The position numbers and the translations under genes were made by a program. This document shows, one piece after another, positions 1 through 16,200 of a DNA stretch of 64,000 nt. Positions within the stretch are counted from its first letter, which is position 1. Each line of letters begins with the position of its first letter. The stretch lies in IMG/VR virus record IMGVR_UViG_3300024252_000005. The stretch is one strand, 5' to 3'. The notes beneath the pieces are model-generated. The model was not told where the DNA came from and ran no database searches. It saw nothing but the letters and a program-made list of their open reading frames with translations. This stretch comes from a virus (taxonomy: Duplodnaviria > Caudoviricetes).

Positions 1-10
1 TTATGTTCTT

Positions 11-40
11 ATTATATATCAATGCAAGTTAAGTTGCACG
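11..40 (-). promoter_or_regulatory. Promoter copy P1 CGTGCA-N18-TATAAT
   Basis: Read directly on reverse complement; its gene lies left of the window. Confidence 0.8.
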
Positions 41-238
41 TTATAGGTAACTCTCTGTCTCTGTGATGTATGTGTTGATTGGAGTGAGTTGCTCACCAGT
101 ATGCAGTGTCATCCACTTATCCTGAACGTGAGTATATCCAGAACTCTTAAGCTCTTTAAGCTTATTAACACGTTGCTCAACGTCGTGGGGAAGATTAATG
201 TTTTGATCATCTTGATCGTAGTGGACATGAAATACCAT
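41..238 (-). CDS. Hypothetical early protein (65 aa)
   Basis: ORF track; AAGGA RBS upstream; lies directly downstream of promoter copy 272-302; stop codon abuts the next promoter copy. Confidence 0.7.
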   Translation of the reverse strand: MVFHVHYDQDDQNINLPHDVEQRVNKLKELKSSGYTHVQDKWMTLHTGEQLTPINTYITETESYL

Positions 239-271
239 GTTAAGTTCCTTTAGTGATATGGATTATGGTTT

Positions 272-302
272 ATTATAATACCTTTATTAACTGAGTTGCA
301 CG
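272..302 (-). promoter_or_regulatory. Promoter copy P2 CGTGCA-N19-TATAAT
   Basis: Read directly; the only copy with a 19-nt spacer. Confidence 0.75.
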
Positions 303-322
303 CCAACTCGACGACCCAGAGC

Positions 323-847
323 CTATGCAGGCTGTGTAAGATCCTCGTTGCGTGCCTTAACATCCTCTAGGAAATCAAGGATCTTCTTCTCATGGCCGTC
401 AATGTGCGAAGTATCGAGACCACCAGAAGCCTGAACATCACGCATCTTGTCGAGGCGAAGCTGAAACCATTGGAATCCGTCAAGCAAGATAGTCTTTGGT
501 GAAATGTTTACCGGAGTAAACTCTTCGCTCATATCGATGTCTTTGTTGTTCATGTGATCCCATTTGTTGACACCGTGATAGTGACCCAAGATGTCTTCAT
601 AATCAGTACAATTCGACCAACCTGAGTTCCAGTAAACGTAGCCATGAACTTCTTTCATGAAAGCGTTCGCATCGTTGAATGACTTGCGAAGACCCGGATC
701 AAGTGACTCGATGAAGTTGTCACGGATATCTCTGAGCTCTTGCGTCTCTCGGAATCGTTCACGTGGTGTCTCAATTGAGCTCCACTTTTCGTTATACGTA
801 TTGTGGTTATATGTAATTGTATCTCGAACTTGTTGTCTCGTTGGCAT
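323..847 (-). CDS. Hypothetical early protein (174 aa)
   Basis: ORF track; AAGGA RBS between the upstream stop (859-861) and ATG. Confidence 0.8.
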   Translation of the reverse strand: MPTRQQVRDTITYNHNTYNEKWSSIETPRERFRETQELRDIRDNFIESLDPGLRKSFNDANAFMKEVHGYVYWNSGWSNCTDYEDILGHYHGVNKWDHMNNKDIDMSEEFTPVNISPKTILLDGFQWFQLRLDKMRDVQASGGLDTSHIDGHEKKILDFLEDVKARNEDLTQPA

Positions 848-858
848 GTCAGTTTCCT

Positions 859-1047
859 TTAGTGAAGTGTTTTACGAATAGGCAGAGCGATAGAGTCATC
901 GTACGACTTAAGAAGCTTTCGAACTTCTTGACGATCAATACGCGTGAAAAGTCGCAACTCATTACGACCAACTGCTGTATAACCAAGTCGTTTATTTGTA
1001 TGAGATCGCGAACCGAGGCGATGAGAGTGTCGATTAATTGCTGCCAA
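859..1047 (-). CDS. Small basic hypothetical protein (62 aa, TTG start)
   Basis: AAAGGA 7 nt before TTG, downstream of promoter 1081-1110; preferred over the overlapping 849..1052 frame. Confidence 0.55.
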   Translation of the reverse strand: MAAINRHSHRLGSRSHTNKRLGYTAVGRNELRLFTRIDRQEVRKLLKSYDDSIALPIRKTLH

Positions 1048-1080
1048 GTCACTGTCCTTTGTTGATGTTGATTATGGTTT

Positions 1081-1110
1081 ATTATACCACGTCGTTAAAC
1101 GTATTACACG
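1081..1110 (-). promoter_or_regulatory. Promoter copy P3 CGTGTA-N18-TATAAT
   Basis: Read directly on reverse complement. Confidence 0.8.
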
Positions 1111-1335
1111 TCAAATGATCTTGGTTGTCGGGTTCTGATCGTCCATCACACCATCACAAATCTCTCCTGGGTCGAATTCGTAGAGATGAAAACTCCCGTC
1201 GCTCATAACAACTGTTATTACGTTACCACGCGTCGTCACAGTCTTTACTTCACGAGGATTCACGTTCAATTCGTCACACACTTCTTGAAGGTCGATCTCT
1301 ACTCGAGTTGAGTAAGTTATTTGAATCGTTGACAT
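1111..1335 (-). CDS. Hypothetical early protein (74 aa)
   Basis: GAAAGG RBS; own promoter at 1384-1413; stop abuts next promoter. Confidence 0.75.
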   Translation of the reverse strand: MSTIQITYSTRVEIDLQEVCDELNVNPREVKTVTTRGNVITVVMSDGSFHLYEFDPGEICDGVMDDQNPTTKII

Positions 1336-1383
1336 AGTTAACCTTTCGAAACGTCGTTAATGATTGGTTGTCCTTACATCTAT

Positions 1384-1413
1384 ATTATAGACTAAGGTAT
1401 TGTTATTTGCACG
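1384..1413 (-). promoter_or_regulatory. Promoter copy P4 CGTGCA-N18-TATAAT
   Basis: Read directly on reverse complement. Confidence 0.8.
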
Positions 1414-1448
1414 CCGAGCTCGACGCTACAAGCCGTAGCCACTGCGAA

Positions 1449-1850
1449 TCAGTAACCCATGACTTCGTTGTAAGCTTCACACCCACCCATCATACCAGCC
1501 TCCATCGCGATCTCACGTCTCCAGTCTTCCATCCAGTCATCGTCATCACCATCCTCCGTCGCTTCACGAACAAGCTTGATGTCGTCAGTGTCCCAAGGAT
1601 TGAACTTTTGACCATATCTCACACCGCCGTTGAGGAGCTCCATATTCTTTCCCATGGCGTTTTCCTTGTCCTCCCAGTCTTCGCCTTCGTAAACCCAGAT
1701 CGCGTCACCATCACCACACCTCGCAAGACTCACCAACTCTTCGAGAGTATACTCTCTGCCCACCTCGAGAATAACCGTGTCACACCAGTCGTCGTTGTGA
1801 ATTGGGTCGACGTTGCTCCCAGTAGTCATTAAACATTTGATGATTCCCAT
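1449..1850 (-). CDS. Acidic, Trp-rich hypothetical early protein (start reassigned to ATG 1850)
   Basis: GAAAGG RBS sits just before ATG 1850, not before GTG 1868; own promoter at 1900-1929. Confidence 0.75.
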   Translation of the reverse strand: MGIIKCLMTTGSNVDPIHNDDWCDTVILEVGREYTLEELVSLARCGDGDAIWVYEGEDWEDKENAMGKNMELLNGGVRYGQKFNPWDTDDIKLVREATEDGDDDDWMEDWRREIAMEAGMMGGCEAYNEVMGY

Positions 1851-1899
1851 AGTAAAACCTTTCGTCACGTTGTTAATGTTTGTTTGTCCTTACATCTAT

Positions 1900-1929
1900 A
1901 TTATAGACTAAGGAATTGATTGTTACACG
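1900..1929 (-). promoter_or_regulatory. Promoter copy P5 CGTGTA-N18-TATAAT
   Basis: Read directly on reverse complement. Confidence 0.8.
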
Positions 1930-1945
1930 TCGTTTCGACGACGTG
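1926..1945. terminator. Perfect 8-bp hairpin CACGTCGT-TTCG-ACGACGTG overlapping the -35 of P5
   Basis: Perfect inverted repeat downstream of the 2022..2801 gene; no U-tract, so terminator function is uncertain. Confidence 0.35.
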
Positions 1946-2021
1946 GAGCCTTGTCACGGCGAATCAGATCTTTGTAAGATCGATCCTATCGAAGCGAGGC
2001 CAAACGACCTAGGTCTTTGAA

Positions 2022-2801
2022 TCAGAAGATGTCATCGTTGAGGTCGTCGTCGTAGTCATCCTCGAACTCGTCGTTACTGAGGCCTTGTGATGAGAGGTAA
2101 GCTTCCCAAGCTTCAGGATCATCAGAGTCAGGGACATCACTCGGAGTCTCGTCGTCTGGTGTCTCCACCTCGTCAACGACTTCAGTTGTCTCGGTCTCCT
2201 CAGCTTCAGGCTCTTTGGCTTCGCTCGGTGAGGCAATGACCTCGAGCTTCTCTGAGTGGGGAGTTCCTCCTAATGGAGAGATCACATCGTCAAGTCCAAC
2301 AGCAGGTAAGATAAGCAACTGCCTTTGATGATCATCTTTGGATCCACTTGTTCGAACTTCGAAGGCTGCCATATGAGCCTTGCTTTTAGGGTCGACGCGA
2401 GGTCCTGAGTAGCGAACCCATGCGTAGCCAGCTTGCGTCGTCCATGCCTTGTAGGCTGAGCAATCGATGCCATCCTCCTCGAACTCGTCAAGACTTGGGT
2501 TAACGACGTCAAGGGCAACTTGAACCCACTTCGCTCCGCGACCAGCAAACATTGCCTTCTGCTCACGACGCCAATCGGAGCCAGATCCATTGGCAGTCTT
2601 GCCAGATCCTGAGCAAAGGTGCTTGATGTCAGTCTTGATGAGACCATCAATATGCTTCTTGAAAGCAGTTACCTTAGGATCGCCTCCAGCTGCAATAAAC
2701 TGCTCGAACAAAGCTTTAATATGATTAACTTCTGTCATTGTATCCTCAATTGTTGGGTTTGATGTTGGGATGTTTTGGGTAGATTGAGTATCAGTTGTCA
2801 A
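2022..2801 (-). CDS. Hypothetical early protein with long acidic C-terminal tail (259 aa, TTG start)
   Basis: AGGAG RBS 5 nt before TTG; own promoter at 2833-2862; D/E-rich last ~70 aa. Confidence 0.8.
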   Translation of the reverse strand: MTTDTQSTQNIPTSNPTIEDTMTEVNHIKALFEQFIAAGGDPKVTAFKKHIDGLIKTDIKHLCSGSGKTANGSGSDWRREQKAMFAGRGAKWVQVALDVVNPSLDEFEEDGIDCSAYKAWTTQAGYAWVRYSGPRVDPKSKAHMAAFEVRTSGSKDDHQRQLLILPAVGLDDVISPLGGTPHSEKLEVIASPSEAKEPEAEETETTEVVDEVETPDDETPSDVPDSDDPEAWEAYLSSQGLSNDEFEDDYDDDLNDDIF

Positions 2802-2832
2802 AATGACTCCTAAATGGTTGGGGTGATGTTTT

Positions 2833-2862
2833 ATTATAATAGGATTAGATTAATGTTACACG
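2833..2862 (-). promoter_or_regulatory. Promoter copy P6 CGTGTA-N18-TATAAT
   Basis: Read directly on reverse complement. Confidence 0.8.
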
Positions 2863-2936
2863 ATAGATGATGGACCTGTTGTTTCCTTAATAATTAACTT
2901 TGATTCATATTTAACTCCTTTCCTCTAGTACTTTTT

Positions 2937-2966
2937 ATTATACCATCTGTCTCAATTAGTTACACG
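2937..2966 (-). promoter_or_regulatory. Promoter copy P7 CGTGTA-N18-TATAAT
   Basis: Read directly on reverse complement. Confidence 0.8.
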
Positions 2967-2992
2967 ATCCAACTCGACGACCCGAAGGGCTG

Positions 2993-3058
2993 TCAACGCA
3001 AGTTCTCGAGATCAATGATGATCGATGCAGCTAAGAAGAGAATAATCAAGGTAAGCAT
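2993..3058 (-). CDS. 21-aa hydrophobic mini-protein MLTLIILFLAASIIIDLENLR
   Basis: Below ORF-track cutoff; GAAAGG RBS 6 nt before ATG; dedicated promoter copy 3122-3151; hairpin after the stop. Confidence 0.5.
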   Translation of the reverse strand: MLTLIILFLAASIIIDLENLR

Positions 3059-3121
3059 ATGATGCCTTTCAACTTAAGGCTCTAACATGAGGACGAAGGC
3101 CTCGTTTTTGCCTGACCTGTT

Positions 3122-3151
3122 ATTATATAACCTTCAGGCGATAGTTACACG
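3122..3151 (-). promoter_or_regulatory. Promoter copy P8 CGTGTA-N18-TATAAT
   Basis: Read directly on reverse complement. Confidence 0.8.
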
Positions 3152-3303
3152 ATTAATACGCCGGACGCCAGAGTTCTCACATCATCACCAAGAAACGTGT
3201 AACTTGGTAATTCAACTGACCGGGAAACCAACGATGTCAAAGATCTGAAGGGAAGAGGCATGCCTCTTTTGGAACCACCGTTCCTATCCCCCCTTATGTT
3301 CTT

Positions 3304-3333
3304 ATTATAATATGCCACGTCGCCGGTTACACG
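3304..3333 (-). promoter_or_regulatory. Promoter copy P9 CGTGTA-N18-TATAAT
   Basis: Read directly on reverse complement; rightmost copy, abuts the GC-rich junction. Confidence 0.8.
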
Positions 3334-3470
3334 TAGGCCCCGGGGCTCTAGAGGGCCCCTTTTAGGCCCCCTCTGCGTGTATCTAAAACTCAGTGGGACT
3401 CCGGCCCAGGGGGGGTTTAGTCCGCTACCAGCATTTTCTTCCCGGGAACTTTTCGAAAAGCTTTTAGGTA
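3334..3470. other. GC-rich, palindrome-dense junction between divergent genome blocks
   Basis: GCCCCGGGGC, GGGCCC, and abutting/overlapping palindromes TTCCCGGGAA (3439-3448), CTTTTCGAAAAG (3449-3460), AAAAGCTTTT (3456-3465); strand and composition switch here. Confidence 0.7.
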
Positions 3471-3584
3471 TCACATTTGAATACATCTAATTTGTGAAAA
3501 AAACTCCAGGAGACTTTTTTAATAACTTTTTGATATTTAGAGATATATTTATATTTAGTTATATTAATAGAAAGAGTTTTAAAT

Positions 3585-7804: not shown

Positions 7805-7881
7805 TTTAAAAAATAATTGAAGAAATAGGCGGTTGTGAAGCGTGGATAGATAAATTGTATTAAAGATATTTTTAAATAATG

Positions 7882-8827
7882 TGTTGATAAATATATAATA
7901 GATAAAAGGAGTTTATTTATGCGTATTACTGAAAGGAAACTAAGAAATATTATAAAAAGTATTATTTGTGAAAAAAGGAGTAATAAGAAATTAAATGTTG
8001 AAATTGATAGACGAATACTAAAACAAGTAGAATATATGTTTGAATATAATTATTCTATTTTTGTAGAAGACAAAGAAAACCAATTAATTGTAGCTATGCA
8101 TAAGATGGATAGAGTTCGTAAAAGCCAAGAAGAACGTAAATTAAATACAATTGGAAGATTTAAAAGAAAGCCTGGCAAAAAAGTTGGTTCTGTTATTTTT
8201 GATAAATACACCAGAAAAGAAGGTAAAGTAATTCCTTTAGGGGTTAAAGTTGGTGGTAGTAAAAGAAAAGGTGTTTGGTGCGTTGGTTTATCAGAGCTTA
8301 AAAATCATGATGAATTAGGTTTAGGGCCTATCATGTATGAAGTTGGTATAGAGTATATAAGTAGGCATAAAAACTGTGCTGTTGGTGCTCATTTTAATGG
8401 TGGTTCATCTAAACATGCTTTTAGAGTCTGGGAAAAATTTGACAACAGAGAAGACTTTGAAAAATATCAATTTGATATAGATTTAGATTACGAAGACTTT
8501 AAGGGTAACAAGAGAGAGGAAAATAATTTAACAAAAAATATTTCTCAAATAACACCTGAAGATGATAGTGATGATATTGGATTTGGTTTGAACAACTTAA
8601 ATTACACTTTGAATTTAAAAAAGTCTGAATTTGTAAAAAGTTGGTTTAAATCACCTTTGACAAGAGGTTTTTTTAACAATAAAGGTAGAGTTATTAAGCT
8701 GTTACATTCTAAAGATTTAATATTTAAATGTTGACATTAATTAAGTATAGATAGATTATGTTGATAAATATATAATAGATAAAAGGAGTTTATTTATGCG
8801 TATTACTGAAAAGAAACTAAGAAATAT
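7882..8827 (+). repeat. 69-bp near-exact duplication (7882-7950 and 8759-8827; 1 mismatch) covering promoter region, AAGGAG RBS and the first leader codons
   Basis: Direct comparison; first 53 bp identical. Confidence 0.9.
7919..8734 (+). CDS. Leader-bearing protein, possible GNAT-like domain
   Basis: Leader MRITERKLRNIIKSIICE; GLGPIMYE...SSKHAFRVWEKF resembles GNAT motifs A/B. Confidence 0.6.
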   Translation: MRITERKLRNIIKSIICEKRSNKKLNVEIDRRILKQVEYMFEYNYSIFVEDKENQLIVAMHKMDRVRKSQEERKLNTIGRFKRKPGKKVGSVIFDKYTRKEGKVIPLGVKVGGSKRKGVWCVGLSELKNHDELGLGPIMYEVGIEYISRHKNCAVGAHFNGGSSKHAFRVWEKFDNREDFEKYQFDIDLDYEDFKGNKREENNLTKNISQITPEDDSDDIGFGLNNLNYTLNLKKSEFVKSWFKSPLTRGFFNNKGRVIKLLHSKDLIFKC

Positions 8828-10352: not shown

Positions 10353-11120
10353 TTACCAACTAAAAATTATTCCACCTTTCAGCATAAAGTCTGTATTTTC
10401 TACTTTTTCTGACGGTACTGTGTCGTACAAATAAGTAATAGCTGTATCTATTCCTAGACTATATTCACTTCTATTAACAATAGAAGATCTAAGTTTAATC
10501 TCGCTATTAATTCTATAGTCACTATGATTAAACAATAAGGGCTGATAGTAAGTTACAACAGAGACAAAACTGGAATCATTTTCATTGAAATATTTTGTTA
10601 AAGTAAAATAAGAAGTTATTCTTGAGTGTGTTGTTGTTTCATAAGATAATTGCTCATGATCTGACATTATGCCTAAACCTGAAGATATTTGGAAAAGATT
10701 ATTGTTTTGTAGAGGCTTTTCAAATCTTATACCGACACCATTGAGTTGTCTTAAGCTTAAGTCTCTAAATTCATTATACTGAGTTTGAGTAAATATTTCA
10801 TATCCTAAAAATTCATGCAACATAATAGTATATCTAAAGTGGACAAAAGCGTTATTCTTGTAAATCTCTTTGTCTTGAAATCCTTTGCTTGCTGAACCCT
10901 TTAGCAAGATATGATTTTTGTTTAATTTATAGTGTAAGTCTTTTTTAATTTCGTATACTTGAGAATTAACATTGCCTTTTTGAAATTGAATATTTACTTT
11001 AAACTCTCCGTAAAAGCCTGTTTTAGTTGCTGAGTTCCTAAAAGATTCAATGTTTACTTGCGCAAACAAAGTATTGCAAGAAAGCAATACTATTATTAAT
11101 GTTGATATTATGCTTTTCAT
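10353..11120 (-). CDS. Outer-membrane beta-barrel protein, DUF481-like
   Basis: Cleavable signal peptide (...TLFA|QVNIE), alternating hydrophobic beta-strand pattern, C-terminal aromatic motif IIFSW. Confidence 0.65.
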   Translation of the reverse strand: MKSIISTLIIVLLSCNTLFAQVNIESFRNSATKTGFYGEFKVNIQFQKGNVNSQVYEIKKDLHYKLNKNHILLKGSASKGFQDKEIYKNNAFVHFRYTIMLHEFLGYEIFTQTQYNEFRDLSLRQLNGVGIRFEKPLQNNNLFQISSGLGIMSDHEQLSYETTTHSRITSYFTLTKYFNENDSSFVSVVTYYQPLLFNHSDYRINSEIKLRSSIVNRSEYSLGIDTAITYLYDTVPSEKVENTDFMLKGGIIFSW

Positions 11121-15333: not shown

Positions 15334-16200
15334 TTATATTATGTCTTTTATTTTTCTTATTAGAGGTTTTAAATTTTCAACAATGAAATCCCTTACTACA
15401 TCTAAGTATTCGAAAGGTTTTAATATTAAATAGTCGACACCCCAGAGATTTTTCGATTCGCTGTTAGAGATAAAAGGCCAAGTTATGCATATAATATAAA
15501 ATATTGATATAACAGCAAGTTTTGGTAGCAACCATAGTGTCAATTCTTTTATTTTTTTATCTCGCAGCTTACTTTTTACTTTTTTTGGTCCACCAAGTCT
15601 TTTAGCTTTTTCGTTGCCCTCTGGAGGTTGTAGTGATTCGATTAATTCTCCTACAGCGTATATAACTTGAGTCTCTGCTACACCTTTAAACTTATATAGA
15701 CCCACCATTACATATCTAGTGCCTTTTGGTGTCCAATGATTAGTTCTATTCTTAATTGCTGAAAATGCTTCTTTAGTCAAAAGAACTTGCTTTGGACCAC
15801 AAATGCTCATAGTTCGAGCAGCGATATTTTTGCCAATTCCTTCGAGTTCAACGCCCTTAGCACCCATAAGTGCATATAGTTCATCTTGTTGAACTTCTAT
15901 TACTTTACCCCAGTGAATACCTATTCTTGTATCTAATTTTGTTTTTTGTGGTATAGTTTTTTGGTAGTGCAAGGCAAAATTAACAGCGTCTATTGTAGTG
16001 TCAAAAGACATTAAGAAGCCGTCACTTCTATCTATTTCTCTTCCTTGAAATTTATAGCATAGATTTCTTGCCATTCTGTCGTGATATTGAAACCACTCAG
16101 CAGCTTTTACAGCGCCATACTTTTGAACAAAAGCAGTTGAGTCTATTATATCTAATAGAACTATAGCAAGATTTTTTTCTTTTAAAGTTATAGGTGACAT
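15334..16200 (-). CDS. Class III nucleotidyl (adenylate/guanylate-type) cyclase domain protein with C-terminal TM helix
   Basis: LLDIIDST and RSDG metal-binding Asp motifs, RIGIHWG, KNIAAR (Asn/Arg); hydrophobic helix near the C-terminus. Confidence 0.8.
   Translation of the reverse strand: MSPITLKEKNLAIVLLDIIDSTAFVQKYGAVKAAEWFQYHDRMARNLCYKFQGREIDRSDGFLMSFDTTIDAVNFALHYQKTIPQKTKLDTRIGIHWGKVIEVQQDELYALMGAKGVELEGIGKNIAARTMSICGPKQVLLTKEAFSAIKNRTNHWTPKGTRYVMVGLYKFKGVAETQVIYAVGELIESLQPPEGNEKAKRLGGPKKVKSKLRDKKIKELTLWLLPKLAVISIFYIICITWPFISNSESKNLWGVDYLILKPFEYLDVVRDFIVENLKPLIRKIKDII

Follow-up and report, generated by a model that had tools for sequence, protein, structure and literature searches.

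A candidate phage-specific promoter class, GTGYAA-N17/18-TATAAT, in an uncultured marine jumbo phage and its proposed reading by a truncated sigma factor with a helix-turn-helix partner

The 64,000-nucleotide (nt) stretch of viral DNA examined here (IMG/VR record IMGVR_UViG_3300024252_000005; "the window" denotes this whole stretch) carries at its left end an array of promoter-like elements, each consisting of a CGTGYA box, a spacer and the hexamer TATAAT. A pattern search for CGTGYA-N18/19-TATAAT returned exactly nine matches in the window, all on the minus strand and all between positions 11 and 3333; shuffled versions of the window gave a mean of 0.06 and a maximum of one. The search thus bears out an earlier note on this DNA, which had listed nine minus-strand copies, one of them (272-302) with a longer spacer. 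The spacers had been described as unrelated in most copies, which is indeed so, and the two boxes and the distance between them are constant. Two further CGTGYAA sites in the window (~7775 and ~35515) had been said to lack a good -10 element, and TATAGC and GATGCT are found there. The statement that nearly every copy is followed by a ribosome-binding site and a gene is slightly generous: a Shine-Dalgarno (SD) sequence and a real open reading frame (ORF) follow six of the nine copies, and the three most upstream copies do not fit the description. The count of nine is exact for the window and an undercount for the phage, as the array continues beyond the window edge. The copies and the ORFs behind them are collected in Table 1.

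Table 1 Promoter copies of the array and the reading frames that they head, in window coordinates
Feature	Position	Strand	Genes and remarks
Promoter copy 1, CGTGCAA-spacer-TATAAT	11-40	-	Gene of 137 aa, past the left window edge (locus L001, 10888-11301)
65-aa ORF, no known family	41-238	-	SD sequence; ATG 33 nt past TATAAT of copy 2
Promoter copy 2, longer-spacer copy	272-302	-	Heads ORF 41-238
Two abutting orphan ORFs	323-1052	-	67 aa (849-1052, GTG at 1052), then 174 aa (323-847)
Promoter copy 3, TGG before TATAAT (extended -10-like)	1081-1110	-	Heads ORFs 849-1052 and 323-847
Promoter copy 4	1384-1413	-	Heads ORF 1111-1335 (74 aa)
Promoter copy 5	1900-1929	-	Heads ORF 1449-1850 (133 aa)
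Promoter copy 6	2833-2862	-	Heads ORF 2022-2801 (259 aa, TTG start, acidic tail)
Promoter copy 7, TGG before TATAAT	2937-2966	-	Only an SD sequence and a 4-codon ORF, then copy 6
Promoter copy 8	3122-3151	-	Followed by a 21-codon hydrophobic mini-ORF (3058 down to 2993)
Promoter copy 9, first of the array, beside the divergence point	3304-3333	-	Followed by 146 nt free of ORFs

Three full copies lie within 400 bp at window positions 2937-3333, which resemble a promoter battery. The ORF-free 146 nt behind copy 9 contain the palindrome AAGAGGCATGCCTCTT; a search for a small RNA in this stretch gave no Rfam match, and its folding z-score of -0.97 is not unusual. Between copies 4 and 5 (1384-1460 and 1900-1976) ~71 nt are 89% identical, a stretch that comprises the end of the spacer, the -10 hexamer and the leader (TAGTCTATAATATAGATGTAAGGACAA...). 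Genome-wide, leaders of two families recur, namely AAACCATCACCAC... and A(T/A)A(G/C)ATGTAAGGACAAC.... The 174-aa and 259-aa proteins have no relative in IMG/VR, and for three proteins of the surrounding island, described below, IMG/VR relatives are absent or marginal only.

The window encodes a DNA helicase, PhoH, a baseplate wedge protein and huge structural proteins, and therefore derives from a large myophage. Its source is an uncultured marine myophage of ~255 kb, that is, of jumbo size. The 174-aa protein is encoded on a 255,251-bp ENA metagenome contig, as well as on near-identical contigs from other samples. A composite of 130,226 bp (contig positions 33,426-163,651) was joined from neighbouring-gene look-ups with conflict-free overlaps; its left 8 kb are taken from a sibling contig that is 99.99% identical. 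The genome-wide promoter counts given below cover this composite, which is about half of the phage genome.

GTGYAA-N17/18-TATAAT occurs 41 times in the composite, against 0.47 in shuffled sequence. The spacer is N17 in 21 copies and N18 in the other 20, and the consensus reads (c)GTG(T/C)AA(c)-spacer-TATAAT-A, with C before the box in 36/41 and A after TATAAT in 37/41. The ninth base past TATAAT is A in 38 copies, the only hint as to where transcription starts. TATAAT is perfect in all nine window copies and all 41 composite copies, partly by design of the pattern. The association also holds when approached from either box: of 41 heptamers CGTGYAA present in the 130 kb, 36 are followed by TATAAT at the expected spacing, and when every hexamer lying 14-23 nt upstream of any of the 352 TATAAT sites is counted without bias, GTGTAA at N17/18 ranks first. 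TTGACA is missing from that count. Nor is there any sign of a conventional class, since TTGACW-N16-18-TATAAT occurs once in the 130 kb and once in the control, and a scan of the island with the standard sigma-70 consensus gave 24 sites against 26.3 in shuffles, which is no enrichment. Loose TTGACA-like matches are scattered over both strands and are unrelated to genes. The class has a -10 element of the sigma-70 type and the 17 ± 1 bp spacing that goes with it. Its upstream box agrees with TTGACA at three of six positions (T, G and the last A) and is not close to it.

All copies in the composite fall between contig positions 35.5 kb and 103 kb, and every copy points in the direction of the genes behind it. 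Locus L001 has 19 copies on one strand within 10 kb. None is found in the ~60 kb of structural genes at window positions 3.4-64 kb. When the pattern is slightly relaxed, 33 of 43 copies have an SD sequence and a start codon 19-63 nt downstream. The genes headed by a copy include a sigma factor gene, an AAA_5 ATPase, a Gad2-like protein, a ResIII helicase and many orphans. Because replication-type genes and the sigma gene are among them, we refer to the class as pre-replicative and not as strictly early. The earlier note had proposed a phage-specific class, and this part stands, the box being the top signal upstream of TATAAT; the class is not confined to small early ORFs. The motif search over the genome and its relatives that the note had recommended thus finds 41 copies in 130 kb, and the motif is conserved in relatives, as set out below.

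The sigma gene (locus L021, 17472-18224, minus strand) lies ~63 kb to the left of the window. It encodes 250 aa with the Pfam Sigma70 regions 1.2, 2 and 3, matches solved SigA/RpoD chains with E = 1e-41 and aligns to residues 376-587 of the 615 of Salmonella RpoD. The sequence FSTYACWWIKQ, with the Y/W/W/Q motif that reads the -10 element, is kept, as is the region 4.1 motif RLRFGI. In place of the helix-turn-helix (HTH) of region 4.2 the protein ends in a conserved tail, NFPVTxEMxEYL. More than 120 clusters of homologues are of the same length (247-254 aa) and none has a Sigma70_r4 domain, so the protein is natively truncated. Overlapping the sigma stop codon by 11 nt, the following ORF encodes 92 aa with an HTH pattern (LYDIAKIM...KMNHSTVRNIINRS). 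In 26 homologues of this protein with 58-92% identity the segment KMNH-TVRNI is invariant, with S33 in at least 90%. By language-model features its nearest named clusters are all small viral Sigma70_r4 proteins (0.83-0.87), which we take as a lead only.

Structure prediction gives a weak indication that the two proteins interact. Sigma residues 190-250 together with the HTH protein scored 0.40, against 0.00 for the best of three controls; contacts agreed to at least 72% between runs and the predicted local distance difference test (pLDDT) value of the partner was at least 63. Among 80 solved complexes, 58 attained the mark used for such predictions, as did 2 of 110 mismatched pairs; with scores of 0.60 or below, however, only 7 of the 80 solved complexes did so, together with both of the mismatched pairs that passed.

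The sigma gene has a promoter of the same class. GTGTAA-N18-TATAAT is located at L021 18249-18279, 25 nt upstream of the gene and inside the end of a 59-aa ORF. Three close relatives (L025-L027) keep the box upstream of their sigma gene with a weaker -10 element (TATTAT, TAAAAT). This arrangement suggests that the sigma factor may regulate its own synthesis.

A search of IMG/VR with the sigma profile gave 80 loci with 36-83% identity to the phage protein. A locus was classed as having a split module if its sigma ORF stops short of region 4.2 and the ORF behind it encodes an HTH with a helix of the MNH[SA]T[VA]RN type. The 63 split-module loci (1.13 Mb, 23-56% G+C) contain 60 matches to GTGYAA-N17/18-TATAAT, against one in the reversed control, and two to TTGACW-N16-18-TATAAT. 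The picture is inverted in the 17 loci that have a full-length sigma or lack such an HTH gene (278 kb): these contain no GTGYAA match, with one in the reversed control, and 13 TTGACW matches. An overlapping HTH gene is present in 63/63 split loci, the class being defined partly by this ORF. The motif lies on the strand of the sigma gene throughout the split loci, in many cases 100-500 nt upstream of it, and in helicase-based relatives it is found at the syntenic position. Even in the phages of 54-56% G+C, where TATAAT occurs only 2-7 times per 20 kb, one of these hexamers still has the box at the right distance.

One relative (L052) departs from the pattern in both components. On its contig (G010, 116,707 bp, 23% G+C) the HTH protein has the helix MNHNNVRAIM instead. 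This contig contains no GTGYAA promoter and 14 copies of TTGTAA-N16/17-TATAAT, against two in the control; in the 130-kb composite the same TTGTAA pattern gives two, and two in the control. The pairing of MNHNNVRA with TTGTAA hints that the reader helix and the box may co-vary; as it is seen in one lineage only, it is a hint and not proof.

Taken together, these observations make it reasonably probable, in our view, that GTGYAA-N17/18-TATAAT is a promoter class private to the phage, which serves its pre-replicative genes and is read by the phage sigma factor together with the adjacent HTH protein. The earlier note had left two readers open, an unusual host primary sigma factor or a -35 reader supplied by the phage. 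The phage-supplied reader is favoured by the gene content, with the truncated sigma and its HTH neighbour as the obvious candidate; the unusual host sigma is disfavoured because phages of 23-56% G+C share the box and phages with a complete sigma carry TTGACW. In the proposed mechanism the host core RNA polymerase would carry the phage RpoD-like sigma, whose retained regions 1.2, 2, 3 and 4.1 would read TATAAT as a primary sigma factor does. The GTGYAA box, in the position of the -35 hexamer, would be read by the small HTH protein, which would thereby replace the missing region 4.2. As the likeliest start we infer, purely by reasoning, a weak first round in which host sigma-70 uses the perfect -10 element, with a TG and a final A that GTGYAA has in common with TTGACA, followed by positive feedback. 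A more general picture can be drawn, in which GTGYAA-N17/18-TATAAT governs the entire pre-replicative programme of a large clade of uncultured marine jumbo phages whose hosts differ widely in G+C, with a domain 4 made of two polypeptides and an HTH helix that retunes the box. We regard this picture as quite possible, if slightly on the doubtful side.

Several results weigh against a phage sigma with a separate -35 reader. Searched against Pfam with E values up to 0.1, the HTH protein has no match, its hhalign probability against region 4 of Salmonella RpoD is 0.2, and its profile finds nothing relevant among PDB sequences; the AlphaFold model (pLDDT 77) has no significant Foldseek match in the PDB. 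It is tied to the box by gene adjacency and co-occurrence only. Both it and the sigma lack the N-terminal leader MRITExKLRxIIRSV of neighbouring proteins, and there is no sign that the two are injected. Start-up is a further difficulty, as the sigma gene would depend on its own product. The 80 loci are interrelated and include some near-duplicate contigs, so the counts drawn from them are not phylogenetically independent. Finally, a reverse scan of IMG/VR with CGTGYAAC-N16/17-TATAATA returned, among the matches listed, multi-copy contigs that are 3-18% fragments without a sigma gene; being fragments, they are uninformative on the association with sigma.

It is unlikely, though worth weighing, that the host alone reads these promoters, its primary sigma using GTGYAA as the -35 element of the host clade or tolerating it as a weak one, with the phage sigma serving other promoters. 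The -10 element is a perfect group-1 hexamer in each copy and the spacing is 17-18 nt, as host recognition would have it. GTGYAA and TTGACA also share T, G and the last A, but the conserved C on either side of the hexamer goes beyond a sigma-70 -35 element. That the sigma gene itself sits behind a promoter of this class speaks for the host, since something must fire before the phage sigma exists, and T4-type phages do use host sigma-70 on dense arrays of early promoters (PMC2839356, PMC2988021). The earlier note had allowed that CGTGYAA might simply be the standard -35 of the host clade. This is argued against by a box common to phages of 23-56% G+C, which can hardly have one host clade, and by the absence of a TTGACA class. 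The distribution across contigs points the same way, with TTGACW outnumbering GTGYAA by 13 to 0 where the sigma is complete or the HTH gene is lacking and the ratio standing at 2 to 60 in split loci.

An activator of the kind used at T4 middle promoters would account for a sigma-70-type -10 element combined with a phage box in place of the -35 (PMC2988021). Host or phage sigma would then read TATAAT, and some other phage DNA-binding protein would bind the box at -35 to -29 and recruit the polymerase; the link between the 92-aa protein and the box, by adjacency and co-occurrence, leaves room for this. The box, however, lies at the canonical -35 distance (N17/18) and not at the 12-13 bp of the MotA box, the sigma lacks exactly the HTH that reads the -35 while the adjacent gene is kept in 63/63 split loci, and a variant helix accompanies a changed box. 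We therefore consider an activator quite improbable. That the elements are not promoters at all, and instead mark borders of recombination or cassettes or sites for replication or packaging proteins, with TATAAT incidental in AT-rich DNA, seems to us hardly credible. Several copies do share longer identity that takes in spacer and leader, in the manner of duplicated cassettes, and three window copies head no real gene; yet the spacers are mostly unrelated while both boxes and their distance are fixed, and the strand follows the genes, with an SD sequence and start codon 19-63 nt downstream. The retention of the box at the right distance in relatives of 54-56% G+C, where TATAAT is scarce, also argues against an incidental hexamer.

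The preferred reading, a phage sigma with a separate -35 reader, has partial precedents. In the two-subunit sigma factors SigO-RsoA of B. subtilis, Sig7-Sig8 of Tn916 and gp55/gp33 of T4, which are ECF-like (extracytoplasmic function) or highly diverged sigmas, promoter recognition is divided between two polypeptides of adjacent genes. SigO-RsoA and Sig7-Sig8 are the nearest precedent for the candidate reader, in that two adjacent genes are proposed to split recognition; unlike them, the phage protein is a group-1-like RpoD homologue cut inside domain 4, after region 4.1, and ends in the NFPVTxEMxEYL tail. Among the ECF sigmas of B. subtilis, SigX and SigM have the -35 elements TGTAAC and TGCAAC, and ECF -10 elements are CGTC/CGAC-like. 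The phage TG(T/C)AAC agrees with these -35 elements letter for letter and lies at a similar distance from the -10 element, but here the -10 element is TATAAT and the sigma is RpoD-like, not ECF. The HTH protein gave no match to Pfam Sigma70_r4_2. The two-subunit systems are named in bioRxiv 10.64898/2026.10.01.756105 and PMC7826278.

T4 middle promoters carry the box (a/t)(a/t)TGCTT(t/c)a centred at -30, 12-13 bp from the -10 element (Hinton 2010, PMC2988021). MotA reads this box and AsiA remodels host sigma-70, a process termed sigma appropriation (PMC2988021). The present class resembles them in combining a standard -10 element with a phage box that replaces the host -35, in serving pre-replicative genes and in a change of specificity at sigma region 4. 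It differs in that CGTGYAA(C) lies at the true -35, 17-18 bp from the -10 element, and in the phage-encoded sigma without region 4.2 and its small HTH gene. The PeSL cassettes of T4-type phages offer another comparison; their promoters match the E. coli sigma-70 consensus and are combined with a stem-loop terminator (Arbiol et al. 2010, PMC2839356). As in those cassettes, dense and nearly identical strong promoters precede small orphan genes in a plastic region beside conserved modules, and some copies share ~70 nt including the leader; the -35 element here, unlike theirs, is non-canonical. Terminator-like hairpins numbered five in 11 kb, where shuffled sequence gave 7.1, and had no regular placement; the scan was a simple one, which weak hairpins may escape. 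No gain or loss of cassettes was seen between L001 and L002, two strains that are colinear at 99.98%. In the literature searched we found neither this promoter nor an RpoD-like sigma divided within domain 4. What is added here is the contrast between TTGACW and GTGYAA across phages, together with the TTGTAA variant.

Should the proposed reading be right, these phages, which are abundant in the ocean, would neither borrow the promoter language of the host, as T4 does for its early genes, nor remodel host sigma-70, as T4 does for its middle genes. They would supply a primary-type sigma whose -35 reader is detachable, along with promoters to match, and would redirect the host RNA polymerase in a third manner. 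Such an arrangement would account for the operation of a single regulatory system at 23-56% G+C, and synthetic biology would gain a compact, natural and portable orthogonal sigma/promoter pair. The motif also has a practical use in annotation, as it marks pre-replicative genes across a large group of uncultured phages.

The array lies in a part of the genome with distinctive composition. Window positions 1-3480 are the right end of a ~10-kb island of 38-47% G+C, against 27-31% elsewhere; the island extends ~6,200 bases to the left of the window (L001 7000-17000), and the array is densest there. G+C is raised at all three codon positions (0.52/0.36/0.45 against 0.39/0.32/0.27). In two relatives, G001 and G002, the corresponding ends of the contigs have 41-52% G+C; conservation of the trait argues against recent import. 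We note that both of these contigs stop within the promoter island (first 1-2 kb), which suggests that assemblies break there owing to the repeated promoters or to strain variation. At the divergence of the minus-strand island and the plus-strand genes, window positions 3334-3480 are non-coding and rich in G/C runs and palindromes; as RNA this segment folds no better than shuffled sequence (z = +0.64).

In the GenBank phage collection nothing resembles the island DNA, the HTH protein or a distant HTH relative; the phage has no cultured relative. A search of genome contigs with the HTH alignment found two contigs only, from metagenome-assembled genomes of Bdellovibrionota and Paceibacterota, with 39-41% identity. 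These are probably binned phage DNA and as such uninformative on the host. No tRNA genes were found in the 64-kb window. The moraphage lineage (PMC12619734) was considered as the group to which this phage might belong and was rejected, as moraphages have no sigma or polymerase genes.

Other signals in the window are of a different kind. A T4-type late promoter, TATAAATA, was looked for ahead of the structural genes and was not seen, as a gene follows only one of its 22 sites. Outside the island, plus-strand genes have an AT-rich signal, ATATAATA(G/T)A, located 20-30 nt before the start codon and without a GTGYAA box; it occurs at window positions 7830-7918 and 8707-8795 and also before 31346 and 36512. 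This signal may mark another class of promoter, used later. Between the genes at 7919 and 8796 the upstream stretch and the first codons are identical. On the minus strand, two segments (15334-16200 and 10353-11120) code for a protein with a borderline adenylate/guanylate cyclase domain, which scored 21.5 bits where the cut-off is 21.9, and for an outer-membrane-type protein with DUF481.

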